NCBI GenBank assembly: GCA_964649985.1
Contig: CAZYQX010000003.1
Location: forward strand, 29,704-93,703
Length of the DNA: 64,000 bases
From: an uncultured Pseudomonadales bacterium
Lineage (GTDB): Bacteria > Pseudomonadota > Gammaproteobacteria > Pseudomonadales > CAZYQX01
Direction of reading: 5' to 3'
Below the pieces are notes generated by a model. That model was not told the origin of the DNA. It worked only from the letters and a program-made list of their open reading frames with translations, and ran no database searches. A program made the position numbers and the translations under genes. Shown here one piece after another: positions 4,458 through 64,000 of this stretch; position 1 is the first letter of the stretch, and the number at the start of each line of letters is the position of its first letter.

Positions 4458-6032
4458 ATGACCCAGAACATCCACGCCCAGAAAATCCTGATCCTGGACT
4501 TCGGCTCCCAGTACACCCAGCTGATCGCCCGCCGGGTGCGCGAGATCGGCGCCTACTGCGAGATCTACGCCTGGGATGCCGGTGACGAGGCCATCCGCGC
4601 TTACGCGCCCCAGGGCATCATCCTCTCCGGTGGCCCCGAGACCACCACCCTGGAAGGCACCCCCCGCGCCAGCCAGGCAGTGTTCGAGCTGGGCGTGCCG
4701 GTGCTGGGCATCTGCTACGGCATGCAGACCATGGCGGTGCAGCTGGGGGGCAAGGTGGAGTCCTCCGAGCTGCGGGAATTCGGCTATGCCCGCGTCACCG
4801 TGAACGGCGCCAACCCGCTGCTGGATGGCATCAGCGATCACGACGATGCCGCCGGCCACCAGCTCGACGTGTGGATGAGCCACGGCGACAAGGTCACCGT
4901 GCTGCCGCCCGGTTTCAGCCTGATGTGCGGCACCGACAGCGCCCCCATCGCCGGCATGTGCGATGTGAGCCGCCAGCTCTACGCGGTGCAGTTCCACCCG
5001 GAAGTGACCCACACCCACCAGGGCGGCCGCATGCTGGAGCGCTTCGTGCGCGGCATCTGTGGCTGTGAAGGGCTGTGGACCACCGCCAACATTATCGAAG
5101 ATGCCATCGCCACCGTGCGCGCCAAGGTGGGCGGTGACAAGGTGCTGCTGGGCCTGTCCGGCGGGGTGGATTCCTCGGTGGTGGCCGCCCTGTTGCACCG
5201 GGCCATCGGCGAGCAGCTGACCTGCGTGTTCGTCGACACCGGCCTGTTGCGCCTGCACGAGGGTGATCAGGTGATGGCCATGTTCGCCCAGAACATGGGC
5301 GTGAAGGTGATCCGCGTCGACGCCGAAGCCCTGTTCATGGGCAAGCTGGCCGGCGTGGCCGACCCCGAAGAGAAGCGCAAGATCATCGGCCGCACCTTCA
5401 TCGAGGTGTTCGATGCCGAGGCCGCCAAACTCACCGACGTGAAGTGGCTGGCCCAGGGCACCATCTACCCGGACGTGATCGAGTCCGCCGCCAGCAAGCA
5501 CGGCAAGGCGCACGTGATCAAGTCCCACCACAACGTGGGCGGCCTGCCGGAAGACATGGCGTTTGAGCTGGTCGAGCCACTGCGCGAGCTGTTCAAGGAC
5601 GAAGTGCGCAAGCTGGGCCTGGAACTGGGCCTGCCCTACGACATGGTCTACCGCCACCCCTTCCCCGGCCCCGGCCTGGGCGTGCGCATTCTGGGCGAGG
5701 TGAAGAAAGAGTACGCCGACATCCTGCGCCAGGCGGACTACATCTTCATGGAAGAGCTGCACAAGGCGGGCTGGTATCACCAGGTGTCCCAAGCCTTCGC
5801 GGTGTTCCTGCCGGTGAAATCGGTCGGCGTGGTGGGCGACGGCCGCCGCTACGAGTGGGTGATCTCCCTGCGCGCGGTGCAGACCATCGACTTCATGACC
5901 GCCCACTGGGCGCACCTGCCCTACGAACTGCTGGGGGAAGTCTCCCGCCGCATCATCAACGAGATCAGCGGCGTGTCGCGTGTGGTGTACGACATTTCCG
6001 GTAAGCCGCCGGCCACCATCGAGTGGGAGTGA
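4458..6032 (+). CDS. guaA: GMP synthase (glutamine-hydrolysing)
   Basis: 524 aa. GATase domain ([27 protein letters not shown]), ATP-PPase P-loop SGGVDSSV and the invariant C-terminus [10 protein letters not shown]. Confidence 0.97.
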
Positions 6033-6076
6033 TTTGGCGGTTGGCACTTTCCCGTACGTACTAGTAAAGGCAAGCC

Positions 6077-6103
6077 AAAAGCCCGCGTAATCGCGGGCTT
6101 TTG
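6077..6103 (+). terminator. Rho-independent terminator of guaBA
   Basis: AAAAGCCCGCG (6077-6087) / TAAT / CGCGGGCTTTT (6092-6102). Perfect 7-bp GC stem plus a T-run. Confidence 0.7.
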
Positions 6104-6192
6104 GCATTTACACTTCTGTAAATTGAGGCTTCTCGTTCTGCCAGCGAGCCGTTGAGCTAACGTCGAAGTAGGCGTACTGGCCAATCCAACAG

Positions 6193-6198
6193 TAGAAT
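6193..6198 (+). promoter_or_regulatory. Candidate -10 box (TAGAAT) for the SIR2-domain gene
   Basis: TAGAAT lies 29 nt upstream of ATG 6227. No convincing -35 hexamer at 16-18 nt spacing. Confidence 0.25.
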
Positions 6199-6226
6199 CG
6201 ACGCACAGTATTGATTAATTGAGCTT

Positions 6227-9200
6227 ATGAGATTCTATCCCGATGGTCCCGCGATACCGGATATCCTTCTGGAGCGCTGTGATGCTGGTCGCGTCGTGTT
6301 TCTGTGCGGTGCAGGAGTTTCGAAACCATCTATGCCGGATTTTGTCGGCCTCACTCGCTACGTCATAGACTGTTTTGCCCCGCCAGCTGATTCAGAAATC
6401 ATGGTCGCGTTTTGGCCATGGCACCCTGATAATCCGCATCGGAACGATCAGTCTGCGGCAAAAGTCCCGCTCGACCAAATCTTCAATCTCCTGCACCTTG
6501 AATACGGCAAGGACGAAGTGAACGCTCTGGTTACAGAGAAGCTTAGTACTCCTCTCGAAACCCAAGATGTTGGACGTGAACACGGCCTGATCAAGCGGAT
6601 TTCTAAGAGTACGAGCGGTGTGCCGCAGATCGTCACGACGAATTTCGACCGCTTGTTCGAGATAGGGCCCGAGGGGGAGCATCTGCGCCCGCATGAGCCG
6701 CCTGCTTTTCCCGACCTGAACTTCGGATCGAAGATAGAGGGGATCACGTATCTACATGGGCGGCTGGTGGAGGTGACCTCAGAAAGCCATCCCTACGTTC
6801 TGAGTAGCGCGGACTTCGGGCGTGCATATCTCTCAGAGGGATGGGCAACTAACTTCATCCGGCACCTCCTCGAACGATATACCGTCGTTTTGGTCGGCTA
6901 TCAGGCCGAAGACCCGCCAATCAAATATCTTCTTCAGGGTCTCAACCATGACGGTCAGTATGACCGGTCCAGACTCTACGCCTTTGATCGTGGGCTTCCG
7001 GAAGAGATCGAAGCTCGGTGGCGTGACCGAGGTGTCACAGCTATAGCCTATTCCGATCATCCGGACTTGTGGAAGAGCATGGAAGCTTGGGCAGACCGGG
7101 CCGACGACCTGCGCAAGTGGCGTGCATCCATCATCAATAAAGCCCAGCATGATCCGAAAAATCTTGCCCCTCATGAGCGTGGTCAAGTGGCGCATGTACT
7201 TCGCACAGTACAGGGGGCGAGATTGTTCTCTGAGGCGGACCCTTTACCTCATCCGGAATGGGTGTGTGTGATGGATGCGAATGTTCGTTTGGCGGCACCG
7301 GGCCCAGGCGATAGCGCCGTTGCAGAAGTTTTCGATGCCAGGGTTGCTTATGGGCTCGATGATGATCTGACGGATAACTCTGATGATGAGAGTCGTCAGG
7401 GTGCCAGCAACGACAATCTCCTAGTTTGGCGCCATGGCGATGACAGCCCACATGAGTTTCATCGATTGGCTGGGCGACAGGTCGAAGGCTATGAGGCCAT
7501 TCCTAGAAGGCTCGGCTATCTCATCAAATGGATTAGTAAGTCGATCGATAGTCCGGTGTTGGCGTGGTGGGCCATTCGAAAGAACGGACTGCATCCACGA
7601 TTGCTGCATGAGATTGAATTGCAGTTAGCGCGTGAGGGTGGTCTGCACGAGCGTGCACGCCATATCTGGAACCTTATACTCGAATACTTTCGGGATCCAC
7701 GTAATCGTCAGAGGTGTGACGGCTGGTTCGATTTGAAAACGCGGATCAATTTGGAGGGGTGGACGGCCAGTGTTTTACGAGAATTCCAGAGGGTTGCGAT
7801 GCCTAGATTGGATATCACACCGCCTCATGGACTGAGCCAGTCCAGGCCACCTTGTGTGCCTTGGGAGCAAATTTGCCTAGAACACCTCGGCCATTTTGAG
7901 GTGAAATTCCTTTATCAGTGTAAAGAAGATGTAGACGTTCCCGACGATTTTTTGCCGCAGGTATTTGGCATCCTGGAAGATCAGCTGATTGTAGCGTCAG
8001 GTTTGCTGGGGGATATTGATAGCACAAACGTTGAGGCTCCGACCTGCTATGCCGACCGTGAGATCGACGGGGATGACTACGTTACTCCAGCTGGGGAAGT
8101 TTTTGCTCGGTTTGTACATCTTTTTGACCGAATGGCTGACAGGTGGCCTGCACTCGCGAATGCGCACGCAACAACTTGGCCTGTGACGGACCGGCTCTTC
8201 TTCCGGAAGCTAAAGCTGTATGCGTTCAACAAAGTAGGTGTGTTCGAAGCCGATTATGTTGCCGAAGAAGTTTTGTCTTTAGATCAGGAAACATTCTGGG
8301 ACATTGATGTTGCCCGAGAGCTTCTTTTTCTTTTTGTGGACCGATGGGGAGAGTTTTCTCTGGAGTGCCGGAATCGACTGATCGACCGTATTTTGACTGG
8401 CCCCAATAAGGGTTCGGATGGGCTTGGGGAGGAGTGCGCTGTATCGTGGGATGAGTTTGATGCCGCCAGATACGCTCGGTATATCGAACTACAAGGGTGC
8501 GAGCTGGCGGCTGATCACAGTGAACGACTTGCCGAGATGATCCAGCGTATTCCTAGATGGAGTGACCGTTGTGCGACCTCACTGGTGGACGAACGGGGCC
8601 ATTGTGTGGTTGGGATTGTTAAGGATGAAAAACCAGATGTCCTTGTGGGCATTCCTGTAAACGAGGTGGTCTCCAGGGCCAAGGAAGACTTGAATCGGGA
8701 CGTTGGCAGCTTCATTGAAAAGAGACCCTTTACGGGTATGGTGAGAGAAAATCCGCGAAAAGCGTTGTCTGCATTGACTATTGCGGGAAAGGCTGGCGAC
8801 TACCCAGAGGTGCTCTGGTTGGCGATGATCAATGAAATTCCCGCAAACATCACGTCTAGGCTGAGAAGGGTATTCCTTAACCGACTCGCACGGCTTCCAA
8901 ATAATGTGATCGTCGAACTGCGCCATAACTTAGCTCGATGGCTCAGGCAAAATTTGGGTTCTATTCTTGAGTTCGACGTTGATCTTGGTTGGGCAGTTTA
9001 TGATCACGTCGTCGAAGGTATCCTAGGGGGTGGTGCAGACGCTACAAAGAGTGACCTTGTTGAAATTTACCATGCTGGAGGCGTCGCCCAACGGTCTCGG
9101 CGCACTTTAAAGCAGGCGTTCCACGGCCCAATTGGTCTGTGTGCTGAGGCTCTTTTTTCCGCAGTGCCTGGCGAAATACAGGCTGCCGGGTCACTAATCC

Positions 9201-10054
9201 CATATGACATCAAGTCTCGTGTCGAGCGACTCTTTACCGCGCCGGGAGAGGGGGCAGACCACGCAGTATCGGTAACGACTAGCAAGCTGGTCTGGCTTAT
9301 GTCTGTCGACCCTGCCTGGACAAAGGTTCGCATTATTCCAATGTTGGCGTTTGAGCACTCCGCTTCGGAACCAGCTTGGAATGGTTTTCTTCATGGCGGG
9401 CGAGTGCCGTCACCCCCATTGGCCGAGATCATCAAGCCGCTCTTGCTTGATATCCTCCCGTGGATCGAAGAATTTTCCTGGGATCGCAACCTCTCAAATG
9501 TAGCGGTCCAATGGCTAGGCATCATGCGGGTGCGTCGCCTGGATGAACTGGGTGGCCTCTCAGAAGGCCAAATGCGCGCGGTTATTCGAACGATGACAGA
9601 CGCTACTCGGAAGCAGTTCATTTTCTGGTTGGGTCTAGTCGGTCAGCAAAACGATAACGGCTGGGTTAAATATGTCATCCCCTTAATCAATGAGAGCTGG
9701 CCGAGAGAGCGCCGATACAGGACCAGTGCATCGATGACGGCATGGATGCAGCTGCTTGTTAAAACCCAGGATAGTTTCCCGGTTGTATATAACGCGGTGA
9801 AGCAGTTTTTGGTGCCGACTAAGACCGCAGACCATTCGTTTTACTTGTTTACTCGTGTGAACCAGGAGGAAAAATCGATTGCGGCCTTATATCCAGAAGA
9901 AACACTGGATTTGGTGAGCAGGACTATACCTCAAGCCTTCGATTACCCGCTTTTCGGGTTAAAGGAATTACTTGAGCTGATTGGGGATGCCTCCCCCATA
10001 TTGAAAGCAGACCCGCGCTATGTGCGCTTAATCGACCTTATCGAGTGCAGCTAG
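6227..10054 (+). CDS. SIR2-domain protein, 1275 aa: N-terminal SIR2_2/DSR-type NADase-like domain plus ~900-aa C-terminal region of unknown function. Candidate stand-alone anti-phage effector.
   Basis: Ordered SIR2_2 motifs: VVFLCGAGVS (aa 23-32), IVTTNFDRLFE (N139 = nt 6641-6643, D141), YLHGRL (H177 = nt 6755-6757), VVLVGYQAEDPPI (aa 220-232). An acidic linker DDDLTDNSDDESRQGASNDN follows at about aa 378-397. No GxxxxGK[ST] motif occurs anywhere in the protein. Low GC; the only gene in the islet. Confidence 0.8.
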   Translation: MRFYPDGPAIPDILLERCDAGRVVFLCGAGVSKPSMPDFVGLTRYVIDCFAPPADSEIMVAFWPWHPDNPHRNDQSAAKVPLDQIFNLLHLEYGKDEVNALVTEKLSTPLETQDVGREHGLIKRISKSTSGVPQIVTTNFDRLFEIGPEGEHLRPHEPPAFPDLNFGSKIEGITYLHGRLVEVTSESHPYVLSSADFGRAYLSEGWATNFIRHLLERYTVVLVGYQAEDPPIKYLLQGLNHDGQYDRSRLYAFDRGLPEEIEARWRDRGVTAIAYSDHPDLWKSMEAWADRADDLRKWRASIINKAQHDPKNLAPHERGQVAHVLRTVQGARLFSEADPLPHPEWVCVMDANVRLAAPGPGDSAVAEVFDARVAYGLDDDLTDNSDDESRQGASNDNLLVWRHGDDSPHEFHRLAGRQVEGYEAIPRRLGYLIKWISKSIDSPVLAWWAIRKNGLHPRLLHEIELQLAREGGLHERARHIWNLILEYFRDPRNRQRCDGWFDLKTRINLEGWTASVLREFQRVAMPRLDITPPHGLSQSRPPCVPWEQICLEHLGHFEVKFLYQCKEDVDVPDDFLPQVFGILEDQLIVASGLLGDIDSTNVEAPTCYADREIDGDDYVTPAGEVFARFVHLFDRMADRWPALANAHATTWPVTDRLFFRKLKLYAFNKVGVFEADYVAEEVLSLDQETFWDIDVARELLFLFVDRWGEFSLECRNRLIDRILTGPNKGSDGLGEECAVSWDEFDAARYARYIELQGCELAADHSERLAEMIQRIPRWSDRCATSLVDERGHCVVGIVKDEKPDVLVGIPVNEVVSRAKEDLNRDVGSFIEKRPFTGMVRENPRKALSALTIAGKAGDYPEVLWLAMINEIPANITSRLRRVFLNRLARLPNNVIVELRHNLARWLRQNLGSILEFDVDLGWAVYDHVVEGILGGGADATKSDLVEIYHAGGVAQRSRRTLKQAFHGPIGLCAEALFSAVPGEIQAAGSLIPYDIKSRVERLFTAPGEGADHAVSVTTSKLVWLMSVDPAWTKVRIIPMLAFEHSASEPAWNGFLHGGRVPSPPLAEIIKPLLLDILPWIEEFSWDRNLSNVAVQWLGIMRVRRLDELGGLSEGQMRAVIRTMTDATRKQFIFWLGLVGQQNDNGWVKYVIPLINESWPRERRYRTSASMTAWMQLLVKTQDSFPVVYNAVKQFLVPTKTADHSFYLFTRVNQEEKSIAALYPEETLDLVSRTIPQAFDYPLFGLKELLELIGDASPILKADPRYVRLIDLIECS

Positions 10055-10307
10055 AGTAGGGGGGGCGACAAGAGAAATGCTTGGTGCCGTTGTTAGTTTC
10101 GCGCTCTAGATTTTAGTGCAACGAGTGCAGATGCTCGTGAATGGATGTCGCATTACCTTGAATCATCATTGAGATCGGCGGTGACGCGCGGGTGCTGTAG
10201 GACATCTTCGGTCAGCCGTCTGTTACCAAATAGTGGGAGTAAGTCGCCAGATTGAGGCCTGCCACCGAGGTGGTTTGGCCCCTGGCCGGGTGTAATGCCA
10301 CGGCCAT

Positions 10308-10333
10308 GCGGCGTTGCCTTCTGGCAACACCGC
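10308..10333 (-). terminator. Strong hairpin 14 nt downstream of the epimerase-family gene stop (terminator-like, no U-tract)
   Basis: GCGGCGTTGCC (10308-10318) / TTCT / GGCAACACCGC (10323-10333). 11-bp stem with one C/T position. Confidence 0.4.
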
Positions 10334-10346
10334 TTGGCCAATGCCC

Positions 10347-11378
10347 TCAGGCGGGCAGTAGTGGGTGTTTGGATGCCCGCAGGTGCTGCACCGTCAGTTT
10401 GATGCCCTCAGCAAGATTCACCTTCGGTTTCCAGCCAAAATCGCGATAGGCCTTGCCGATCTGGTAGTAGTGATCGGTGATCATGTATTTCACCGCGAAG
10501 CGCGACATGCCGTTTTCCGCGCTGATGCCGCCGCCTTTGAGGGTGTCGATGCCCTCGATGATCGCGGCCACCGCATAGGCCAGCCAGTAGGGCACCCGGT
10601 ATTGGATGGCGGGGAAGCCTGCGGTGAGCATGAAGCGCTCCACAAACTCGAAGAAGGCCATGGGTTCGCCGTTGGTGATGAAGTAGGCTTGCCCACACAG
10701 CGGCGAATCCGGCACCAGCGCGGCCTCGGCGGCGATCACGGCATCCACCAGGTTGGCAATGTAGGTGAAGTCCGACAGCTTGTTGCGCGCACCGATCTCG
10801 AATTTCAGCTTGCCGGCCGCGGCCTTTTCCAGAATGTTGGGGATGAAGCGGTTGTCCCCCGGGCCGAACACTACATGGGGGCGGATGGCGCAGGCCTGGG
10901 TGATGCCGGTGCCACTGAAGGCCAGCACATCCTTCTCCGCCTGGATCTTGCTGTCGGCATAGGGGGCCTGCGAGATGGAGGAGTAGGGCAGGCTCTCATC
11001 GCCGTTGCGGATATCGTGACCTTCATAAACTGCACTGGCGGAGCTGATATACACCAGGCGGGGGATCGTGTGCTGCTTACAGGCCTCCATCACGTTCAGC
11101 GTGCCCTGGTGGTTCACGGCCCAGACCAGGTCTTCGCGGTTGTTTTTGGTGTGCACGATGGAGGCATTGTGCACCACCGAGTCCATGCCCTGGCAGGCGT
11201 CGATCACCGCCTGCCGGTCGGTGAGGTCCACCTTGAGGAAGCGCACATCCGGCCTGAAGGGGGTGCCGCCCAGGTCGATCACGGTGACCTCGAAGCCCTG
11301 GTCGGCGAAGCCATCCACCAGGCTTTTGCCGATGAAGCCAAAACCGCCGGTGATGAGAATTTTCCGCGCCTTAGCCAT
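10347..11378 (-). CDS. NAD(P)-dependent 3beta-hydroxysteroid dehydrogenase/isomerase-family (extended SDR/epimerase) protein
   Basis: 343 aa. Rossmann motif ILITGGFGFIGKSL, catalytic YADSK (YxxxK), overall 3beta-HSD/NAD-epimerase layout. Confidence 0.8.
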   Translation of the reverse strand: MAKARKILITGGFGFIGKSLVDGFADQGFEVTVIDLGGTPFRPDVRFLKVDLTDRQAVIDACQGMDSVVHNASIVHTKNNREDLVWAVNHQGTLNVMEACKQHTIPRLVYISSASAVYEGHDIRNGDESLPYSSISQAPYADSKIQAEKDVLAFSGTGITQACAIRPHVVFGPGDNRFIPNILEKAAAGKLKFEIGARNKLSDFTYIANLVDAVIAAEAALVPDSPLCGQAYFITNGEPMAFFEFVERFMLTAGFPAIQYRVPYWLAYAVAAIIEGIDTLKGGGISAENGMSRFAVKYMITDHYYQIGKAYRDFGWKPKVNLAEGIKLTVQHLRASKHPLLPA

Positions 11379-11414
11379 GCGTGTCTCCTTGCCTGTGAAG
11401 AGGGGTGTCCCGGC

Positions 11415-12092
11415 TCATTTGTAGGTGCCGAACATCAGATCCCAGAACGGGAAGATGGAGGCGTAGTTGCGGTTCAGGTGGTGGCCGTGGTGAAAATCGT
11501 GCTTGGTGGCCCAGAAGTTGGTCAGTTTGAAGAGCGGGTGTGGCAACACCATGTTGGCGTGCACCAGCACGTTGATGACGCTGTGCAGGAACACGATGAT
11601 CAGGAAGGCGGCGCCACTCACCGGGCCAATCGCCATGGTGGTACCGAGCAGCAGGGTGACGCCGGCAAAGCCTTCGATCGGGTTGAGGAACAGGCTCTCG
11701 GCCGGGGTGGGGAAGCGCGAGCGGTGGTGCACGCCGTGCACGAACTTCATCAGGCGCGGGTGGTGCAGGGTGCGGTGCATGAAGTAGTAGCAGAAATCGT
11801 AGATCAACAGCACCGCCAGCACTTCGCCAAAGATGGTCACGCCACTGGCCTGGCCTTCGGCGATCAGTTTGTCGCTCAGGTGATACAGGGCGGCGATGAA
11901 CAGCAGCACCATGAACAACATGTTCAGGCCGATGTTCACCACTTTGCGCGAGAGGGGAATGGTGACGTTTTGCGGCGTGCGAATGCGGTATTGGCCGTAT
12001 TTGTGCGATGTGACCATCCACTGCGTCAGCGCCATCAACAGGCCGGTAAAGCCGCCGATGAAGAGCATGCCATACAGAATTGTGCTGTTCAT
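11415..12092 (-). CDS. Fatty acid hydroxylase / sterol desaturase family membrane di-iron protein
   Basis: 225 aa. Histidine boxes HRTLHH, HGVHHRS and HDFHHGHH, with four hydrophobic segments. Confidence 0.8.
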   Translation of the reverse strand: MNSTILYGMLFIGGFTGLLMALTQWMVTSHKYGQYRIRTPQNVTIPLSRKVVNIGLNMLFMVLLFIAALYHLSDKLIAEGQASGVTIFGEVLAVLLIYDFCYYFMHRTLHHPRLMKFVHGVHHRSRFPTPAESLFLNPIEGFAGVTLLLGTTMAIGPVSGAAFLIIVFLHSVINVLVHANMVLPHPLFKLTNFWATKHDFHHGHHLNRNYASIFPFWDLMFGTYK

Positions 12093-12109
12093 GTGTGATT
12101 CTCCTAGGG

Positions 12110-13717
12110 TCAGGCGTGCTTGCGGCGCAGCATGGCTTTAAGGGAAAGCCCGCAGATGCGCAGCAGGTGCAGGCATTTGTTGCCGATGCTGGGCGAAAAC
12201 AGCAGGTGGGCGGAGCTTTTTGCGATCTCGTAGTCATCCGGTTTTACCGGGAAGATCTTGGGTGGGATCTCGAAGGAGAAGCGGTCCGCCATCACCGCCT
12301 TGTGGTTGGTGTAGTCGCGCAGGCCGTCGCGGCCGTTCATGCGGCCGTAGCCGGAGTACTTCACGCCGCCGAAGGGCAGATCCTGGTTCAGATAGCACAG
12401 GCCGAAATCGTTTATGCAGGTGGCACCGGCCTGCAGCTGCCGGGCGATGCGCTCGCCCTTTGCCTTGTCGCGGGTGATGACCGAGGACTGCAGACCAAAG
12501 GCGGTGCTGTTGGCGACGGCAATGGCTTCGGCTTCGTCCTTCACCTTCATGATCAGCATGACCGGGCCGAACACTTCCTCGTTGATGATGCGCATGTCGG
12601 GGGTGAGATCGGTGAGGATGGTGGGGGGGTAAAACTGCCCGTTGCCGATCCGGCGGATTGCGCCGCCCGCCAGTACCTTGGCCCCCTTGGTGATGGCATC
12701 CTGCACCAGCCGGTCAATCACCTCGATCTGCAGCGGCGACACGATGGCGCCCACATCCACATTGCCGCCGCGCTCGGGTTTGCCCTGGCGCAGCTGGCGG
12801 GTAATGGCGCTGACTTCGGCGACAAACTGCTCATAAACCGCCTCGAACACCAGGATGCGCTCGGAGGCGACACAGTTCTGCCCCAGGTTGATGAAGGTGC
12901 CGCCGATGGCGGAGTACACCGCCTTTTCGATGTGGGCGTCATCGCAGACGATCAGCGGGTCCTTGCCGCCCAGTTCCATGATCACCGGGGTGAGGTGCTC
13001 GGCGCTGCCCTCGATGATGCGGCGGCCGTTGTTCACCGAGCCAATGAACAGAATCTTATCCACCCCGGCGCGCACCAAGGCGGCGCCAGTTTCACCATAA
13101 CCGTTCAGGATACGCACGGTGTGTTTGGAAAAACCTTCCTTTTCCAGCGCCTCATCGGTGATCTGCTGGAAGCGCTGGGTAGACCACGCCACCGCCTCGG
13201 AGGCCTTGATCACCACCGCATTGCCGGCCATCAGGGGCGCCACCAGCGAGCTGAGAATGTTTTGCAGGGGATAGTTCCAGGGCACGATGCAGGCCACCAC
13301 CCCCAGTGGCACATATTCAATGCGCGCCGTTTTGTGCAGCAGAATGCCGGGGCCGACCTTTTCCGGCTTGAGGTGCTTTTCGCCGTGCTTGATCAGCCAT
13401 TTGATCTTGTTACAGATCGGCACGATCTCGCCCAGCATGGCGTTTTCGAAGGTCTTGCCGGAATCCTGCACGATCTCCGCGCACAGCTCGTCGGCGTGGC
13501 TGAGTACGTGGTTGAGGATGTGGGTGAGCACCGCCCGGCGCTGCTTGAAGCTGCTCTGACCCCAGCTCAACTGTGCCTGGCGCGCGGCCTTCACGGCCTC
13601 CAGCACCTCGTCGGGGCGGTTGACGGCCACCGTGCCGAGCCGCTCTCCGGTGGCGGGGTTGAAGCACTCGATCTGCTGCGGGGCGCCGGTCTCAAGAGGA
13701 TGGATGGCGGCTGTCAT
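12110..13717 (-). CDS. NAD(P)+-dependent aldehyde dehydrogenase
   Basis: Start set at ATG 13717 (MTAAIHPLETG...), overlapping the GMC stop (ATGA). ALDH motifs PWNYPL, ELGGKDP and the catalytic-Cys region GQNCVASERILV. 535 aa. Confidence 0.9.
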   Translation of the reverse strand: MTAAIHPLETGAPQQIECFNPATGERLGTVAVNRPDEVLEAVKAARQAQLSWGQSSFKQRRAVLTHILNHVLSHADELCAEIVQDSGKTFENAMLGEIVPICNKIKWLIKHGEKHLKPEKVGPGILLHKTARIEYVPLGVVACIVPWNYPLQNILSSLVAPLMAGNAVVIKASEAVAWSTQRFQQITDEALEKEGFSKHTVRILNGYGETGAALVRAGVDKILFIGSVNNGRRIIEGSAEHLTPVIMELGGKDPLIVCDDAHIEKAVYSAIGGTFINLGQNCVASERILVFEAVYEQFVAEVSAITRQLRQGKPERGGNVDVGAIVSPLQIEVIDRLVQDAITKGAKVLAGGAIRRIGNGQFYPPTILTDLTPDMRIINEEVFGPVMLIMKVKDEAEAIAVANSTAFGLQSSVITRDKAKGERIARQLQAGATCINDFGLCYLNQDLPFGGVKYSGYGRMNGRDGLRDYTNHKAVMADRFSFEIPPKIFPVKPDDYEIAKSSAHLLFSPSIGNKCLHLLRICGLSLKAMLRRKHA

Positions 13718-15327
13718 GAGCGAGTCTCCTGGGGTTGTTGAAGCATGAAGTCCGCCGCGCGATAGCCGATCATCATGCTGGGGGCGTTCAGCGCCGATAC
13801 GGGGATTTCCGGGATCACGGAGGCATCGGCGATACGCAGTTGGCCGAAGCCTTTCAGGCGCAGGTTGGCATCCACCGGGAACGCATCGCCTTCCCCCATG
13901 CTGCAGGTGCCGCAGTAGTGGAAGGTGGTCATGGTGGCGCCGTAGGCCCATTTGCGGTGAGTGTCGCGGTTGCTGCTCTGTAGTGCGGGGATGGGCGATT
14001 TGCTGCCCCATTCGCGCAGGCCGTGGTCGGCGGCGATTTGCCGGGCCAGGGCGATGCCGTTGAGCAGGGTGTCCATGTCGGCCGGGTCTTGATAATAGGC
14101 CGGGTCAATCACGGCGGGATCGCGCACGTTGCTTGAACGCAGGCGCAAGCTGCCGCGAGATTTGGGCTTGCCCAGGATCACCACAATACCAAACAGCGAA
14201 TTCACCAGGCGGCGGGTGGCGGGTATGGCGAAGGCGGCATCCACCAGCCGGCGCATCAGCCAGCGCAGGGGCTTGTTGAAGAACAGTGTGGGCGGCAATA
14301 CCGTGGCGGGCAGCATGCGGTACATGGAGCGCTTCATGGTGGCCGCCGGGGCCAACAGGGCCAGACAGGTGTCCGCCTGCTGGGGCGGCAGGGGCAGGTC
14401 GGGATTGCAGCGCTGGAAGCCGTACACCTGGGGGTGGGCAAAATCCGGCGGCTGTTTGCCCTGGAAGAACATGCTCACATTGGGGTGGTCGTGCAGATTT
14501 TGTCCGATGCCCGGCACATCCTTCACCAGCGGAATGCCCAGTGGCTGTAGCTCTGCGGCGGGGCCCACGCCGGACAGCATCAGCAGCTTGGGGGTTTCCA
14601 GGGCGCCGGCGCAGAGCACCAGCTCCCGGTTCAGGCGAATGGTTTCCCGCCCGCCGTTGCTTTCGCACTCCACCGCCACGGCGTTGTGTTGCGCGTCGAA
14701 CAGGATGCGGTGCACCAGGCAGCGGCTCTTGATGGTGAGGCGCTGCCGGTGGCTGTTTTCCTTGATGAAGGCGACATAGGAGTTGCGCCGGGCGTCGCCC
14801 TCGTAGTTCATGTCGTTGTAGCCCATGAAACCGCACAACTCGCCATCGTTCAGCCCGTGCTTGCGGGCCAGGCCGTTGCGTTCGGCGGCATCCAGCGCGA
14901 TTTCGGTGAAGCGGCCGGGCGCGCGGTGGCGCACCCGCAGGCGCTGCTCCACGCCGGCAAAGGCGGGGGCGTTATCATCCCACTGCCAGCCGGCGGGCCA
15001 CTGCTCGAAGTCCAGCTTGTCGCCCCGGGTGTAGACCATGCCATTGACCGCGCCGCTCCCCCCCATGACGCTGCCAGACCCCATGTACAGGGTACGACCG
15101 GCGCAGCTCGCCTGCGGGGTGGACATGCGGTCCAGCATCACTTTGTCGTTGGCGAAGGCCTGGGTGAAGCCCTCCGCGCTGAGGGTTTCGGGATTGTTTT
15201 CGGCCAGATCGCCGGTTTCGATAAGTAGCACGCTGCCTACATTGGCTTCGGCCAGCCGGCCGGCTACCACGCAGCCCGCAGAGCCACCTCCGACCACAAT
15301 ATAGTCATACGCATTGTTGCTGTTCAT
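13714..15327 (-). CDS. GMC-family FAD oxidoreductase (choline/alcohol dehydrogenase-like)
   Basis: Start set at ATG 15327 (MNSNNAYDYIVVGGGSAGCVVAGRLAE), preceded by GGAAG. GMC signature regions and the C-terminal active-site block (HYCGTCSMG...RIADASVIP). Confidence 0.9.
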   Translation of the reverse strand: MNSNNAYDYIVVGGGSAGCVVAGRLAEANVGSVLLIETGDLAENNPETLSAEGFTQAFANDKVMLDRMSTPQASCAGRTLYMGSGSVMGGSGAVNGMVYTRGDKLDFEQWPAGWQWDDNAPAFAGVEQRLRVRHRAPGRFTEIALDAAERNGLARKHGLNDGELCGFMGYNDMNYEGDARRNSYVAFIKENSHRQRLTIKSRCLVHRILFDAQHNAVAVECESNGGRETIRLNRELVLCAGALETPKLLMLSGVGPAAELQPLGIPLVKDVPGIGQNLHDHPNVSMFFQGKQPPDFAHPQVYGFQRCNPDLPLPPQQADTCLALLAPAATMKRSMYRMLPATVLPPTLFFNKPLRWLMRRLVDAAFAIPATRRLVNSLFGIVVILGKPKSRGSLRLRSSNVRDPAVIDPAYYQDPADMDTLLNGIALARQIAADHGLREWGSKSPIPALQSSNRDTHRKWAYGATMTTFHYCGTCSMGEGDAFPVDANLRLKGFGQLRIADASVIPEIPVSALNAPSMMIGYRAADFMLQQPQETRS

Positions 15328-15534
15328 GCTTCCATTTCTCGCATTGTGTGGCATTCGGCTATTCAGTCGAGGCTTGCGCTTCACATGCGTGGCTGTTCTC
15401 ATCCACGCTTCCTATGCTGTGCTCGGGGACAATTCGGGTTTTCAATCAGCGCGAAGCCGCCCTGACCGTTTGGGCCACCGGCTCGCATTTACCGCAGGAT
15501 GGGGGGGTACGCACATTGTCCATTTTGCTTGTGT

Positions 15535-15563
15535 ATTAATTGTCAACATAAGTTGACTAATAG
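15535..15563. promoter_or_regulatory. Palindromic candidate operator upstream of the GMC-ALDH-hydroxylase-3betaHSD operon
   Basis: ATTAATTGTCAAC-ATAA-GTTGACTAATAG. Perfect 6-bp arms GTCAAC/GTTGAC (15542-15547 / 15552-15557) with partly symmetric AT-rich extensions. About 215 nt upstream of ATG 15327. TTGACA/TTGACT -35-like hexamers are embedded on both strands. Confidence 0.3.
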
Positions 15564-15825
15564 GGTGCCCGCTCTTCAGGGCAACGTCAAGCGCCGTTTT
15601 GCCGCTTGCATCTGAGCATGATGCTGGTGAGGGCGGGCCGCAGTTGTCTGCATCGCGATGTTCTAGGCCAGGGCCGATGCGCGCTATCATGTTGATCTGC
15701 CAGGCCGCTAAGGGGCATGGGGTAAATGACCTGCGCCATAGGTGCGGTTGTTGCTCGAAGTTGGCGGTGTATCAAGTACATGCCTGCGTTGAGTAAGAGC
15801 ATGCGTTTGCTGAAGGCTTTGTGTT

Positions 15826-16311
15826 GTGGACATGACCATGAATACTGACGACCACTACTGGATGCAGCATGCCCTGCGGCTGGCCGAACAGGCGGCAGAG
15901 GCGGGTGAGGTACCGGTGGGGGCGGTGATCGTGCGCGATGGAGAAATGATTGGTGAAGGCTATAACCAACCGATTTCTTCCTGTGATCCTACGGCGCATG
16001 CGGAGGTCGTCGCACTGAGAGATGCTGCGCGTCGAGTGGGCAATTACCGGTTGGTGGATGCAACGCTCTATGTGACCATCGAGCCCTGCAGTATGTGTGC
16101 GGGAGCGCTGGTGCATGCACGCATCGGGCGCTTGGTATTTGGTGCCCGGGAGCCGAAGGCGGGCGTGGTGTGCAGCCACGTGGGCTTGTTGGGGGCGAGC
16201 TTTCTCAATCACCGCGTGGTGGTGGAGGAGGGGGTGCTTGGTGAGGCCTGTGCGATGCGTATGGCCGCGTTTTTCCGGGGGCGGCGTGCGCGCGCCAAGC
16301 CAACTAGCTGA
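15826..16311 (+). CDS. tadA: tRNA adenosine(34) deaminase
   Basis: CDA fold motifs PTAHAEVVALR (HAE) and EPCSMCAGAL (PCxxC). GTG 15826 or ATG 15832/15838 are possible starts. Confidence 0.9.
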   Translation: MDMTMNTDDHYWMQHALRLAEQAAEAGEVPVGAVIVRDGEMIGEGYNQPISSCDPTAHAEVVALRDAARRVGNYRLVDATLYVTIEPCSMCAGALVHARIGRLVFGAREPKAGVVCSHVGLLGASFLNHRVVVEEGVLGEACAMRMAAFFRGRRARAKPTS

Positions 16312-16376
16312 AGTGTCAGGCCCTTGTTAAACTCCTAGGGTTGGCCCACGGTAGGGCCCTAATGGGAGTGCGCGCA

Positions 16377-16607
16377 ATGAATCTAAAGAACATCTTTGCT
16401 TTGCTGACGGTAACTGCCTCGCTTGTTTCATTGACTGGCTGCAGTAGTCCCTACGTCATCACCACCCGCGATGGCACGGCCATCGTGACGGATGGCAAGC
16501 CCAAGCTGGACAAGAAGGCCGGGCTGTACAAATACGAAGACTCCGAAGGCCGTGACGGCCAAGTGACAGCCCAGGATGTTAAGCAGGTGATTGAGTGCGG
16601 TGATTGA
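16377..16607 (+). CDS. YgdI/YgdR-family (DUF903) small lipoprotein
   Basis: MNLKNIFALLTVTASLVSLTGC contains a lipobox. The mature part YVITTRDGTAIVTDGKPKLD...YKYEDSEG...V.AQDVKQV parallels E. coli YgdI (recalled from memory). Confidence 0.85.
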   Translation: MNLKNIFALLTVTASLVSLTGCSSPYVITTRDGTAIVTDGKPKLDKKAGLYKYEDSEGRDGQVTAQDVKQVIECGD

Positions 16608-16615
16608 TACCAGCG

Positions 16616-16634
16616 GGCGGGCTGCTGGCCCGCC
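16616..16634. terminator. Bidirectional hairpin between the convergent lipoprotein gene and cheX
   Basis: GGCGGGC (16616-16622) / TGCTG / GCCCGCC (16628-16634), followed by TTGGTTT. Confidence 0.5.
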
Positions 16635-16639
16635 TTGGT

Positions 16640-17107
16640 TTAGTTGGGGGTAAAGCACACTTCCACGAAGAACTCCCCAGCATCAGAGGCGAAGGGGATG
16701 ATGATGGCTGGCAGTTTCCCTAGCCGCTCAATGCTCTTGTCTCGCCCCACTAGCACTTCCGGTGTTGCCAGCTGGAAATCATAGCCCTTTGTTTCCAGCA
16801 GCTGTTTGGCGCCTCCAGTCACCATGTTGGTGATCTCACCCACAAGATCCTTTATTTCGTCGTTGATGTCGGGAAAGGGCTCGCCCAGCATACGTTCGGC
16901 AATGGACAGGATCACCGGGGTGTTGAACGAAACGGCCAGGGTGCCGTTGGTTTGAGGCGAGCGCATGGCTATTACGCCAGTGATGTCGCCGGCGGGTATG
17001 GCATCCTGCTTAACGGATGCCTTGCCTGCGTTGATCTGCAACATGGCCATGGTGGCCAGCACATTGCTCATCGAGGACAGAAAGGGATTGATGAATTCCG
17101 CCTTCAT
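16640..17107 (-). CDS. cheX: Chemotaxis phosphatase CheX-family protein (orphan; no che operon nearby)
   Basis: Start at MKAEFINPFLSSMSNVLATM. ITGVIAM...GTLAVSF... and GEITNMVTGGAK are typical of CheX. Confidence 0.8.
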   Translation of the reverse strand: MKAEFINPFLSSMSNVLATMAMLQINAGKASVKQDAIPAGDITGVIAMRSPQTNGTLAVSFNTPVILSIAERMLGEPFPDINDEIKDLVGEITNMVTGGAKQLLETKGYDFQLATPEVLVGRDKSIERLGKLPAIIIPFASDAGEFFVEVCFTPN

Positions 17108-17218
17108 CTGCGCTCCGGGCTCCTTGGATTTACTACGGCGAGAGATAATTAAAACAAGTCTAGCAGCGAATCCGGGCTGCACATTGAAAATGTGATCTAG
17201 AGCACGTTTTGCTGCTGG

Positions 17219-18442
17219 CTATTTTCTGTAGCCATGCTGCTTGATCCAGCGCTCATGAGTAGGGATCAGTTTGGCCAGGCTGTAATGGTCCAGCATGGTC
17301 TGGCGCGCCTGTTGCCGGATGGGCTGGTAATGGTCGGGGCGGGCCAGGGCTTGCTCGAGGGTGCTGGCCAGGGCCTTATGGTCGAAGAAATCCACCAGCA
17401 ATCCGTTGTGGCCATCCTGGATCACTTCTTCCACCGGCGCCGTGCGCGAGCCGACCACCAGGCAGCCGGTAGCCATAGCTTCCATCAGCGACCAGGACAG
17501 CACATAGGGGTAAGTGAGATAGACGTGCGCCTGGGAGGCGCGCAGCACTTCCCGGTAGTCGTGCTGATTCAACCAGCCGGTGAAGTGGACGCGGCGCAGA
17601 TCCAGCTGGCCGGCCAGTTCCTCCAACATGGCCTGCTTGTAGCTGCGGCCGTCCGGGCGCTGGCGCGAGTAGTGCACTTCATCGGCACCCACGATCACCG
17701 CGTGGCAGTGGGGTCTGCGTTGTTGCACCAGTGCCAGGGCGCGCATGAACTCTGGAAAGCCTCTAAATGGCTCCATCCCTCGGGTGGAATAGGTCAGCAG
17801 TTCAATCCCCTCATGGGGCAGCGTACCGCCGGGCAACGCCAAAGTCTCGGGGCGTGCCGGGCTGTAGTAGTCGGTGTCCACCCCGTCGTGAATCACGTGC
17901 AGTTTGTTGCGGTATTCCAGTGGGAACTGAGACTGCTGCCAGCGGGTGGGGGTAATGCCAGCATCGCAGCTTTGCAGGTCGATCAGCTGGTTGGCATTGC
18001 AGATGCGCAGATAGCGTTGCTTGTCGAAATCCAGTGGGTGGGCCGGGTCGAAGTTGTACTCTGAGCCGAAGGCGTTCAGGTACCACTCGAAATAGCCGAT
18101 GAAGGGGGTGTCGGGGAAGATGTCCTTCAGATAGAAGTTGTGCCCCCAGCCGGCATAGCCGTAGATCAGGTCGGGTACAAAGCCTTGCCGCTTCAACTGC
18201 AACATGGCGCGGGCCATGGCTTCACCGTGTTGCAAGGCATCGTACATCTTGCCCAGAAACGGGTGGGGCGGGGGCGTGCTATCCAGCTCGATGCGGTAGT
18301 GCAGCCGCTTCACGCCCGGCACACTTTCCAACGAGGCACGCTGTGACAGGTGCAGCACGTGATTGGCGGGGTCTGCCGCCAGTCGTTCCATGAGCTTGTG
18401 AAACTGCCCGGGGAATACCGGGTGGATGAACAGATAGCGCAT
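17219..18442 (-). CDS. Glycosyltransferase, GT4/GT-B family
   Basis: ATG 18442 (MRYLFIHPVFPGQF), preceded by GGATGAGG. C-terminal GT1/GT4 block: YPYVLSWSLMEAMATGCLVVGSRTAPVEEVIQDGHNGLLV (E-x7-E region). Confidence 0.75.
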   Translation of the reverse strand: MRYLFIHPVFPGQFHKLMERLAADPANHVLHLSQRASLESVPGVKRLHYRIELDSTPPPHPFLGKMYDALQHGEAMARAMLQLKRQGFVPDLIYGYAGWGHNFYLKDIFPDTPFIGYFEWYLNAFGSEYNFDPAHPLDFDKQRYLRICNANQLIDLQSCDAGITPTRWQQSQFPLEYRNKLHVIHDGVDTDYYSPARPETLALPGGTLPHEGIELLTYSTRGMEPFRGFPEFMRALALVQQRRPHCHAVIVGADEVHYSRQRPDGRSYKQAMLEELAGQLDLRRVHFTGWLNQHDYREVLRASQAHVYLTYPYVLSWSLMEAMATGCLVVGSRTAPVEEVIQDGHNGLLVDFFDHKALASTLEQALARPDHYQPIRQQARQTMLDHYSLAKLIPTHERWIKQHGYRK

Positions 18443-41453: not shown

Positions 41454-42950
41454 TCAGCAGGCTTGCTCAAACCATTGCAAGCCCTCTTGATGAGGGGGGT
41501 AGAGGCGCCAGATTTCTTCAATCATGCCACTGTGCGCCAAATAGGCCATGTGATTGACGATGTCTGGGTCAAGCTGGGTGCCCGCCAGGCTGTGCAGCTC
41601 CGCCATGGCGTCGAGCAGCGGCCAGGGGTCCTTGTAGGGGCGTTTGGAGATGAGGGCATCGAAAATATCGGCCACGGATGTAATGCGTGCTGATAATGGA
41701 ATCTGTTTGCCCTTGAGGCCCCGAGGATAACCGGTACCATCCCATCGTTCATGGTGTCCGCCGGCAATTTCACGCGCGACCCGAAAAAACGGTTTTTCGC
41801 CGAGGATCTGTTCGCCCTGGAGCGTGTGCTGTTGCATTATGCGGCGCTCTTCCGCGTTGAAATTTCCGGGTTTTTTTAAGATGTGATCGGGGAGTGCAAT
41901 CTTGCCTACATCGTGCATCATCGATGAGTAGCCCAGCTCCATCACGTCGTGTTCTGGCAGGTTCATCAAGGTGGCAATATGCTCTACGTACAGTCGAACC
42001 CGCTGTATGTGGTTAGCGGTGGTGCGGTCTTTCAGATCGCATACAGTAGCGAGTTTGTAGATCACCTCCAGTTGGGCGTCATATAACTCGCGCGTACGCT
42101 CCACGACTTTTGCATCAAGCATGGTGTTGAGTTCTTTCAAGCGCTGGTTGAGGCGTTGCTTGCTGCGCAAAAGTTGTCGCGTGCGCAAGTGGGTGGTGAG
42201 TCTGGCGCGCAGCTCCTCTGGAGAGAAGGGTTTAACCAAATAATCGTTAACGCCTTTTGCCAGTAACTGGTGTAACACTTCCTTTTGTTCCAGCTTGGTG
42301 ACGACCACCAGGCTGACATCATCGTACTTGGGCAGGCTGCGAATGCGATGGCAGAGAGAGATGCCGTCCAGTACCGGCATGTAGATGTCGGTCAGCACCA
42401 AGTCCACATTGGGTTCGGCCTCAAGGTTTTTCCAGGCTTCCAGTCCATCCCGGCAGGCGATAATGTTACAGCCCATCTGCTCCACGACCAGCCGGTATAT
42501 GGCCGTAATCGCCGGGCTGTCTTCCGCTACTAAAACGGTGGGCGTGCCATCAAAACTGGGCAAGCCTTGTTTTCGATCGGGATAGGCGGCGGCGATTTCT
42601 CCGATGCGATCAACCAGCTCTTGTGGGCTCAGTTGGCGGGAAATGAAATCGATGGCCCCCACCTCGAAGGCCTCTTCGCGCAGCCCTACGGCGTTGCTGC
42701 TACTGAGCAGAGCAACAGGTACCAGCCGAGTTTCCTCACTCGCCTTAAGCAAGGCGCAAAATTCCAGTGCCGACATGTCGGGCAGGGTCATGGCGATGAC
42801 CATGATATCGGGAGAAAAATCACGAATGGCGCGAAAACTTTCCGCAGCTGAATGCGTGCAGCAAACCTCCCAGCCTTCCTGGCGGAACAGGGCGGCATAG
42901 ACCTCGCTCACCGCCGTGCTTGGGTCTGCCAGAAGAACGCGTTGGGCCAT
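41454..42950 (-). CDS. Dual-receiver response regulator with an HD-GYP c-di-GMP phosphodiesterase domain (RpfG-like)
   Basis: ATG 42950. Two REC domains (RVLLADPS...DIMVIAMTLPDM; TVLVAEDSP...DLVLTDIYMPVLDG...KPF), then HD-GYP (HDVGKIALP, GGHHERWDGTGYPRGL). Confidence 0.85.
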   Translation of the reverse strand: MAQRVLLADPSTAVSEVYAALFRQEGWEVCCTHSAAESFRAIRDFSPDIMVIAMTLPDMSALEFCALLKASEETRLVPVALLSSSNAVGLREEAFEVGAIDFISRQLSPQELVDRIGEIAAAYPDRKQGLPSFDGTPTVLVAEDSPAITAIYRLVVEQMGCNIIACRDGLEAWKNLEAEPNVDLVLTDIYMPVLDGISLCHRIRSLPKYDDVSLVVVTKLEQKEVLHQLLAKGVNDYLVKPFSPEELRARLTTHLRTRQLLRSKQRLNQRLKELNTMLDAKVVERTRELYDAQLEVIYKLATVCDLKDRTTANHIQRVRLYVEHIATLMNLPEHDVMELGYSSMMHDVGKIALPDHILKKPGNFNAEERRIMQQHTLQGEQILGEKPFFRVAREIAGGHHERWDGTGYPRGLKGKQIPLSARITSVADIFDALISKRPYKDPWPLLDAMAELHSLAGTQLDPDIVNHMAYLAHSGMIEEIWRLYPPHQEGLQWFEQAC

Positions 42951-43184
42951 CGGTTTACCCTCATCCATGATGCTGACAAAAACAGGCAGGACACACATCA
43001 CCTCAACTGTATCGTGGTGATGCTGAACCTGCCTGCTGGGGGCGACAGCAGTAGCCCTTAGTAGGACCCTTGAATCTCATCGCTTAAGGCTGCCGGCGTC
43101 CGTGTTAAAACTATAGCCAGCCCTTAGCTCAAGCCTTAAACCGATTTTTCATAATACGCCGTAGATATAGTGAAAAAGTTGTAC

Positions 43185-63007: not shown

Positions 63008-64000
63008 GCTGGGTCGAGGGGCAGCCAAACACTGAAACGGCTCCCCTCGCCAGGCTTGCTTTCACACCACACTTCTCCGCCGTGAAGCGCGGTTAGTTCA
63101 TGTACGATGGTGAGTCCGAGTCCTGTGCCTTCCACTTTGCGCGATACGCGACTGTCTATGCGGCTAAAGCGCCTAAAAAGGCGCTGTTGATGCTGTTCAC
63201 TGATGCCTATCCCGGTGTCTTGCACTTCCAGGCAGATACCGGGGCGATGTTTGTGTAAAAAAGGGTGTGCCGAGAGGCAGACTCCGCCATGCTCAGTAAA
63301 TTTGATGGCATTGGACACGAGGTTCAGCAAGATTTGCACGAGTCGATTGGGATCCGCCTGGAGGCGTGGCAGCTGTTCAGGGATTTTCGCCTCGAGCCTG
63401 AGGCCTTTTTGCTGGGCTAATTCAACGGATTGTTTGATGACATTGCCCACCAAGCGCGCGAGATCGACATTTTCGCGATGCAGACTGAAATGCCCTGATT
63501 CAATGCGTGCGATGTCGAGCAAGTCGTTTATGATGCCGAGCAGGTGCTTGCCGTTGCGCTCAATGGCCTTGAGTGCTTCTATTTCTCGTTGATCGTGCTC
63601 ACGTTTACGGCTGTCTAGCAAGCGGGTGCTGAAGCCGATCACGGCGTTTAATGGCGTGCGTAGTTCGTGCGACATACTGGCTAAAAATTCACTTTTAGCC
63701 TGGTTTGCGCTTTCGGCGCGCCACTTTTCCTGTTCGAGTTCTTTGGTGCGTGCTTCCACTTGCTGTTGTATTACCGCTGTGCGCACATTAAGCACAATAA
63801 GAAAGACGCTGAATAGGCTGGTGAATAGCATGCCGCAGACCAAGGCCAGCCACGCATTCCAACCCTGGTGGTGCGCCATGAACTCAGGTGTCGCATAGTA
63901 GCTGAGTCGCCAGCTGCGGTTGGCGACGTTCAAGCTTTGCTCGGATCGCCCAAAATGTTGGCTTGGCGGCGCGCCATACAGGTGGTCGGGGCCGCGTTGA
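62968..64000 (-). CDS. Sensor histidine kinase, N-terminus beyond the window edge
   Basis: The frame stays open upstream of the TTG at 63933 all the way to nt 64000. TM segment, coiled coil, H-box [21 protein letters not shown]-box [12 protein letters not shown] and G-box [12 protein letters not shown]. Its 3' end overlaps ampG by 40 nt (convergent). Confidence 0.85.

Follow-up and report, generated by a model that had tools for sequence, protein, structure and literature searches.

A stretch of 64,000 nucleotides from an uncultured Pseudomonadales bacterium (contig CAZYQX010000003.1 of assembly GCA_964649985.1, positions 29,704 to 93,703; hereafter "the window") carries an islet of ~4.2 kb with low guanine-cytosine content (GC) directly downstream of guaA, the gene for GMP synthase. 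A single gene related to the anti-phage gene dsr1 fills this islet. Our data show that the region at 6106-10161 was acquired horizontally, because its composition deviates from that of the host DNA and because it is absent from the nearest relative that we found (locus L113) and from 80 other guaA loci. These data also indicate that the islet is probably foreign DNA inserted by site-specific integration at an attachment site (attB) in the 3′ end of guaA, and that it now persists as an integrase-less remnant flanked by attachment (att) sites, similar to a cis-mobilizable element (CIME). The islet is an ordinary kind of mobile-element remnant and requires no new mechanism.

The key evidence is a direct repeat that brackets the insert. 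The two copies, at 5952-6032 and 10162-10242, are 81 nucleotides long and 74% identical; their local alignment score is 79, compared with 26 ± 3.6 for shuffled sequences (~14 standard deviations), and the repeat edges are sharp, with the 30-nucleotide blocks on either side at background identity. The left copy is made up of the last 26 codons and the TGA stop (6030-6032) of guaA (4458-6032, plus strand; Pfam GMP_synt_C, GATase and NAD_synthase), an intact host gene whose 3′ end would serve as the attachment site. Near its end, at 6021-6028, the left copy contains a perfect match to GAGTGGGA, which spans the codons ...EWE-stop and occurs only once in the window. The genomic island GIsul2 uses this same sequence, 5′-GAGTGGGA-3′, to insert into the 3′ end of guaA, and its integrase (Int) recombines 19-bp att sites with this core (PMC9376610). 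The right copy contains the core-like sequence TAGTGGGA at 10231-10238, a 7/8 match to GAGTGGGA, and both copies share the exact 9-mer AGTGGGAGT. In an integration at this site, the left copy would lie on the attL side and the right copy on the attR side.

An earlier sequence-only reading of this DNA had described an islet free of direct repeats of at least 9 bp, which is incorrect given the 81-nucleotide repeat and the 9-mer within it. It had correctly named the 3′ end of guaA as an integration hotspot: this end is targeted by GIsul2, an IncP island, ATE-1 and the PIMEs, the last of which are reservoirs of anti-phage genes (PMC9376610; PMC5704250; bioRxiv 10.64898/2026.01.12.698999). Its statement that guaA itself is untouched holds for the reading frame, but not for the 3′ end, which is the probable recombination site. 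An islet thought to lack any mobility signature thus has the layout of a textbook att-flanked insertion, whose degenerate repeat had been overlooked by eye.

Comparison with L113 distinguishes the two copies of the repeat. GuaA of L113 is 86.5% identical to that of the window (87% at the nucleotide level for guaA), and the xseA-guaB-guaA order upstream is likewise conserved. The alignment of the two loci starts at 1812 and ends exactly at the guaA stop (6032), beyond which they are unrelated; downstream of guaA, L113 carries a GST gene, with no dsr1 and no integrase. Because the window and L113 agree at 90% over the last 81 nucleotides of guaA, in line with the neighboring blocks and the rest of guaA, versus 72% for the right copy, the left copy is, by this alignment, the vertically inherited guaA end. 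The right copy translates as IIIEIGGDARVL*DIFGQPSVTK*WE*, with two in-frame stops. It differs from the left copy at 21 sites, distributed 6/6/9 over the three codon positions, and at these sites a consensus built from 78 further guaA ends favors the left copy at 15/21 and L113 favors it at 17/21. Since the differences are spread over codon positions and the guaA consensus sides with the left copy, the right copy is a non-coding, decayed guaA end.

The right copy is also strongly diverged. It differs from the left copy at 26% of sites, more than the third-position divergence between guaA of the window and that of L113 (22.5%), and the left-to-right changes are AT-biased (10 GC-to-AT versus 5 AT-to-GC). 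It is 74% identical to the window's own guaA end, 72% to that of L113 and at most 70% to the 78 other ends. We looked for a donor lineage of the right copy among these 78 ends, and none was nearer than the host's own.

Composition sets the islet apart from the host DNA. GC over 6106-10161 is 0.523, compared with 0.619 for the rest of the window, and this is the lowest-GC 4-kb stretch of the 64 kb (~3.3 standard deviations below the mean of all 4-kb windows, 0.613, with a standard deviation of 0.027). In 400-nucleotide windows, GC falls from ~0.65 in guaA (0.662 for the whole gene) to 0.48-0.56 at ~6100-10200, and is at least 0.60 beyond. GC at third codon positions (GC3) is 0.543 in the islet's open reading frame (ORF), 0.91 in guaA and ~0.65-0.89 in most other ORFs of the window. 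The left edge follows guaA and the strong hairpin behind it (6074-6105; 14-bp stem with T-runs on both strands, -32.5 kcal/mol, z = -7.65). The right edge of the trough lies at ~10162-10242 and is followed by a second hairpin at ~10301-10340 (-36.6 kcal/mol, z = -6.6; without a U-tract).

Several elements of the sequence-only reading are borne out by this profile. The trough lies where it was described, although its GC is ~52%, not the 42-48% estimated by hand; both edges, placed after a guaA terminator and before a distal hairpin, agree with our analysis, and the codon composition deviates as well. The same is true of the single gene with a -10-like box, TAGAAT at 6193, which is conserved upstream of most homologs, and of the lack of an integrase, transposase or tRNA, on which the ORF list, tblastn searches, and tRNA and Rfam scans agree. 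No tRNA or Rfam family was found in the window, and the islet ORFs include no integrase or transposase; dsr1 is the sole plausible coding ORF of the insert, with six shorter ORFs of at least 80 amino acids lying inside it on the opposite strand (unscanned).

The islet is not a product of misassembly. At the junctions, the window is matched at 100% identity by four independent assemblies that derive from different sequencing runs, with one contig spanning 5894-13228, and we therefore ruled out an assembly chimera.

A second islet of the same layout is present in an unrelated host. Among 19 contigs with close dsr1 homologs, one metagenome contig (L094) has guaA directly upstream of dsr1, with a GuaA protein 74.8% identical to that of the window. 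The L094 guaA ends in ...ATCGAGTGGGAGTAG (its core stretch is also written ...GAGTGGGAGTAG) and is followed by an AT-rich spacer of ~530 nucleotides, a conserved upstream stretch of ~70 nucleotides with TAGAAT, and dsr1. At 341 nucleotides past the dsr1 stop, the sequence reads ...ATGGAGTGGGAATGA and then forms a hairpin. No integrase ORF or remnant was found in L094. In ~400 kb comprising the window and the dsr1 loci, there are only four instances of the guaA-end motif (core plus stop): two at real guaA ends and two, on the same strand, just distal to dsr1 in these same loci, the window and L094. The dsr1 gene of L094 is 87-88% identical to copies in a tRNA-Met island of P. aeruginosa and in M. 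resinovorans, and 73% identical to that of the window; the two islets also have unrelated att-proximal spacers. Because the dsr1 lineages are not sisters and the spacers share no similarity, the two islets are, as far as these alignments tell, independent insertions into the same attB and not the product of shared ancestry. The L094 spacers (6405-6930 and 10809-11149 of that contig) are AT-rich (GC 0.47-0.49) and longer than those of the window, and contain no detectable coding remnant.

Based on these data, we propose that a GIsul2/PIME-type tyrosine integrase inserted the DNA between ~6029/6033 and ~10231/10242 into the attB core GAGTGGGA. Crossover at the core would leave the guaA frame intact on the left, with a new stop and terminator region supplied by the element. 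On the right, the host's original spacer downstream of guaA would be joined to a non-coding vestige of a guaA end that the element had carried. As expected of such a crossover, GC is island-like after the true guaA stop (0.548 at 6033-6105 and 0.455 at 6106-6226) and host-like after the right copy (0.663 at 10243-10346); at 10055-10161, within the insert, it is 0.495. The empty site would then have read guaA...GAGTGGGAGTAA followed directly by GTCGCCAGATTGAGG. On this account, the ~70 guaA-like nucleotides to the left of the right core would have been brought by the element or left by a previous occupant, an origin that fits the AT-biased changes, the 26% divergence and the unameliorated composition of dsr1. 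The integrase and the mobility backbone would since have been lost, leaving one gene with its own conserved upstream region. Deletion of a backbone from an ancestor resembling an integrative and mobilizable element (IME) is plausible, because a related dsr1 lies directly after int-alpA-rep in a P. aeruginosa island. That island lies at tRNA-Met and not at guaA.

The resulting layout can be followed from left to right. Behind guaA, an attL-proximal spacer (6033-6148) carries the bidirectional terminator-like hairpin and is not common to L113 or to other dsr1 loci. The conserved upstream region of dsr1, a candidate promoter or 5′ leader, extends from 6149 to 6226 (plus strand) with the -10-like TAGAAT at 6193-6198, and the gene itself occupies 6227-10054. 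An attR-proximal spacer of the insert (10055-10161), with no homology to the regions downstream of other dsr1 loci, leads to the right repeat copy, in the same orientation as guaA, and a probable native guaA-downstream spacer with the second hairpin (10243-10346) follows.

Several observations weigh against this account. The right-hand core has one mismatch, and likeness to the GIsul2 site was judged on the 8-nucleotide core. The repeat reaches ~70 nucleotides upstream of the core, an extension that would not be expected from a plain 19-bp GIsul2 att site and that is absent in L094; an additional assumption is therefore needed, either that the element carried a piece of guaA or that a previous occupant left a relic. 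Neither the spacers nor the 64-kb window as a whole contains a detectable integrase, alpA, rep or mob gene or pseudogene fragment, and tblastn searches of the spacers with genes of the P. aeruginosa element gave no int, alpA or rep remnant (all E ≥ 0.09). Since no mobility gene or fragment is detectable, we infer the acting recombinase from the site alone, and the identity of the integrase and the way in which the backbone was lost are to be read in this light. The exact empty site, guaA-spacer-epimerase, was not observed, and our searches turned up no truly close relative that shares the downstream genes. A GuaA search of genome contigs gave nothing above 75% identity among the matches listed; every contig with the identical epimerase carries dsr1, and epimerase homologs (at most 74% identical) have the operon away from guaA.

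We surveyed how often the guaA site is occupied. A dsr1 homolog is missing at guaA in all 80 diverse gammaproteobacterial loci examined, and when the first and second ORFs behind guaA (111 in all) are ranked by Pfam family, Phage_integrase does not reach the top 25. A duplication of the guaA end within 10 kb, a distance at which longer islands would escape notice, was found in only one of ~65 loci, and this is a tandem repeat and not an island. Because dsr1 homologs are absent, duplications are limited to this one case and integrases are not among the common neighbors, the guaA site, though a recognized integration target, is usually empty. The exceptional locus, in Thalassotalea sp. ND16A (L035, 11451-12131), has a 227-nucleotide unit straddling the guaA stop in three tandem copies, two identical and one at 67%, and may be either an assembly artifact or a real tandem duplication.

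The most serious alternative to loss of a backbone after integration is that no integrase of the element's own was ever present in this genome. In this scenario, a small circle of dsr1 plus an att site, released from a larger element that had an att site inside it, was put into the guaA attB by a GIsul2/PIME-family integrase encoded by a co-resident island or plasmid. There is direct precedent, as the CR2-sul2 unit, which is att-flanked but has no integrase, is both excised and integrated by GIsul2 Int, and a minimal plasmid with int and attL integrates as well (PMC9376610). Two independent hosts have the compact core-dsr1-core arrangement with no backbone fragments, and since the two units hold different dsr1 lineages, this compact layout has arisen or been used at least twice. 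The same end state would follow from clean deletion under selection against costly mobility genes, however, and the unrelated att-proximal spacers fit two separate deletions equally well. In addition, the right core of the window is imperfect (7/8), and neither a circle, nor a donor element with an internal att site beside dsr1, nor an integrase acting in trans was observed. Both deletion of a backbone after integration and arrival of a compact att-dsr1 circle fit the present structure; we regard delivery in trans as possible, though somewhat doubtful.

A bolder extension is that naked single-gene defense cassettes with guaA-type att cores are a recurrent class, shuttled in trans by integrases of the GIsul2/PIME family. 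The islets of the window and L094 would be the first examples of such integrase-less defense cassettes, with one integrase family serving a whole pool of them. We offer this idea only tentatively, and consider it doubtful. If trans-mobilization does take place, it would give single defense genes a simple route to spread without a recombinase of their own.

The sequence-only reading had instead favored homologous exchange of flanks, in which RecA-dependent recombination, crossing over within guaA and within the flank downstream, replaces the segment and brings in the gene with no site-specific step. The lack of an integrase agrees with this mechanism, and the presence of the islet in four population assemblies would allow for spread within the population. 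Homologous exchange does not, however, produce a duplicated guaA end with an att core at the distal junction, and it leaves unexplained the core-dsr1-core layout in an unrelated host with another dsr1 lineage. The data also contain no relative with the same downstream flank that could have acted as donor or recipient. The argument for exchange was built on the supposed absence of repeats and therefore fails; we judge it unlikely as the source of the structure, and it would at best be the last transfer step among close relatives. The finished islet may have spread among close strains in this way.

An old resident gene, inherited vertically between the two copies of an ancient in-situ duplication of the guaA end, is highly improbable: the heavy decay of the right copy does imply age, and this copy is slightly nearer to guaA of the window and L113 than to the 78 other ends, but dsr1 is unameliorated (GC3 0.54 in a host at ~0.8-0.9) next to a pseudo-copy that differs at 26% of sites, the decay of that pseudo-copy runs AT-ward, opposite to host composition, dsr1 is missing from the nearest relative and the 80 other guaA loci, and its family is patchy across orders, on plasmids and in integrase islands.

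The cargo of the islet encodes a protein of 1275 amino acids, with no partner gene in the islet. It comprises a SIR2 NADase module (residues 1-~346, nucleotides 6227-7264) and an alpha-solenoid sensor (residues ~380-1275, nucleotides ~7367-10051). Pfam SIR2_2 matches residues 134-273 (E = 1.5e-15), and the Dsr1 models of PADLOC match at 1.1e-76 and 6.4e-70, consistent with the defense function proposed by the sequence-only reading. As a reference for E. coli Dsr1 we used an unannotated, prophage-borne protein of 1275 amino acids. BLASTP alignments to this protein are colinear, pairing residues 1-346 with 1-353 (28% identity, 3e-36) and residues 626-1268 with 634-1266 (22%, 4e-21). The NAD-binding and catalytic motifs are intact: across 42 aligned sequences, the NAD-binding GAG (28-30) is nearly invariant, and TTNFD (137-141, with N139 and D141) and YLHG (H177) are invariant; all three motifs also align to E. 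coli Dsr1. An AlphaFold 2 model of the C-terminal 895 residues is all-alpha (pLDDT, the model's per-residue confidence, of 74), with only generic HEAT/ARM solenoid matches (TM-scores of 0.2-0.27).

Other results set limits to the assignment to Dsr1. The NCBIfam Dsr1 equivalog model NF041818 gives 335 bits against a cutoff of 1400, with E. coli Dsr1 at 2059 bits. BLASTP leaves the ~280 middle residues (347-625) unaligned to E. coli Dsr1, and the structural model of the SIR2 module is poor (pLDDT 56). No sequence match was found among solved structures in the PDB, DSR2 included. Taken together, these comparisons place the gene as a distant member of the Dsr1 family, homologous to Dsr1 but not an equivalog.

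By homology, the C-terminal alpha-solenoid/TPR-like domain would sense a phage protein and switch on the N-terminal SIR2 NADase, and the predicted NADase would lower cellular NAD+ and block phage replication. DSR1 depletes NAD+ (bioRxiv 10.1101/2021.12.14.472415), and a preprint reports the phage major capsid protein as the trigger of E. coli Dsr1 (PMC12803255). For the islet protein, both the activity and its trigger are predictions by analogy with these relatives.

The start of dsr1 is likely at 6227, because homologs and E. coli Dsr1 begin at the corresponding MRF/MQF...GP.IPD position. The public gene call (P0001, 1240 amino acids) starts at Met36 and drops the conserved N-terminus (6227-6334), including the Rossmann GAG at residues 28-30. 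Upstream of the start, 6149-6226 is ~75-80% identical in L094 and three further dsr1 loci (L095, L101 and L106). A consensus scan called no sigma-70 promoter at dsr1, with no good -35 element.

Homologs of the gene that are 66-73% identical occur in a scattered set of genera (Pseudomonas, Alcanivorax, Microbulbifer, Halomonas, Dyella and Gallionella), where they sit in integrase islands and beside Gabija-like genes and insertion sequence elements; more distant ones are found on 63 plasmids. What the dsr1 loci have in common is the gene with at most 200 nucleotides upstream and at most 120 nucleotides downstream. The family has a GC of 0.48-0.56 in hosts of 0.50-0.73, and we therefore consider the window's dsr1 unameliorated, since its family keeps this composition whatever the GC of the host. 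The search also flags a large Dsr1-like gammaproteobacterial subfamily of more than 2,700 clusters at 90% identity, which lies below the NCBI equivalog threshold and whose public label is only "SIR2 family protein".

Two other dsr1 loci deserve mention. In an Stx2c-converting prophage (L117; LC727881.1, 643-5876), a bona fide but unannotated Dsr1 (1275 amino acids, 2059 bits) lies directly after the integrase gene at the prophage end. In P. aeruginosa (L002; GCA_007922905.1, 6561-13810), tRNA-Met is followed by a short integrase relic, int, a 68-amino-acid gene, an RPA/Rep3-type rep gene and a dsr1 88% identical to that of L094, and then by an OLD-TOPRIM/UvrD (Gabija-like) pair and a second integrase-like gene. 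This order suggests that the island grew by accretion of elements.

On the far side of the islet, the host flank begins with a gene of the 3-beta-HSD/epimerase family (10347-11378, minus strand; Pfam 3Beta_HSD, 2e-55), the last gene of a convergent operon for a GMC-oxidoreductase, an aldehyde dehydrogenase, an FA-hydroxylase and the epimerase. The operon is conserved in relatives, where it is not beside guaA. Three of these loci (L090, L091 and L092) have a second epimerase gene (327 amino acids) after the first, and the window's operon (10347-15402, minus strand) lacks it. Because relatives keep the second epimerase gene and have the operon elsewhere, the guaA-operon junction is specific to the window's lineage, with a possible rearrangement there. 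Other stretches of the window with mildly low GC (0.54-0.57; 15201-17400, 41454-43001 and 62968-63933) hold ordinary signaling and housekeeping genes (for a tadA-like deaminase, CheX, an HD-domain response regulator of Pfam HD_5 and a histidine kinase) and show no sign of mobile or defense content.

Among known defense systems, the islet protein is closest to Dsr1 (NF041818; E. coli WP_029488749-type, and the DSR1 tested in Bacillus). Like Dsr1, it is the product of a single gene, with an N-terminal SIR2_2 domain carrying GAG, TTNFD and YLHG motifs and a long all-alpha C-terminus, and its 1275 amino acids lie within the ~1250-1280 expected of Dsr1 and equal the length of the E. coli Dsr1 that we examined. 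It differs in that identity is only 22-28%, and the function of its subfamily is predicted by homology. DSR2 follows a similar logic, with an N-terminal SIR2 NADase and a C-terminal helical-repeat domain that senses a phage structural protein, in its case the tail tube protein. It is a separate family with another reported trigger, however, and is absent from the top 50 structural matches of our C-terminal model.

Among mobile elements, the CR2-sul2 unit of GIsul2 is likewise a small, integrase-less unit bounded by GAGTGGGA-core sites at or next to guaA. Its cargo is a resistance gene plus an ISCR element, it has a parent island, and it was moved experimentally by GIsul2 Int; the window's islet carries a defense gene, has no parent island and is known from sequence alone. 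CIMEs, as defined previously (PMC5704250), resemble the islet in having att-type repeats at the 3′ end of a target gene, no recombination or transfer genes, and adaptive cargo that is kept. The islet retains both attL and attR, the right site being degenerate, and lacks the remnants that would show descent from a complete element. Described CIMEs belong mostly to integrative and conjugative element families of Firmicutes, whereas this islet is gammaproteobacterial.

Elements of the GIsul2/PIME type, including the IncP island, BcenGI2 and ATE-1, use the same site and core, have direct core repeats on both sides and leave guaA intact. The islet differs from them in lacking int, alpA, repA/C, a relaxase and oriT, in its size (4.2 kb versus ~10-20 kb), and in a right repeat that runs 70 nucleotides into guaA-like sequence and has one mismatch in its core; with only ~370 nucleotides of DNA outside dsr1, the insert has no room for replication or mobilization modules (repA/C, oriT, relaxase). 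Because the mobility modules are absent and the right repeat is deviant, we do not file the islet as an IME, and describe it only as a user of the same site. Like the PIMEs, it has anti-phage cargo, and it provides an environmental gammaproteobacterial example, with L094 as a second, of such genes at the guaA attB, whose role as their landing site is increasingly apparent.

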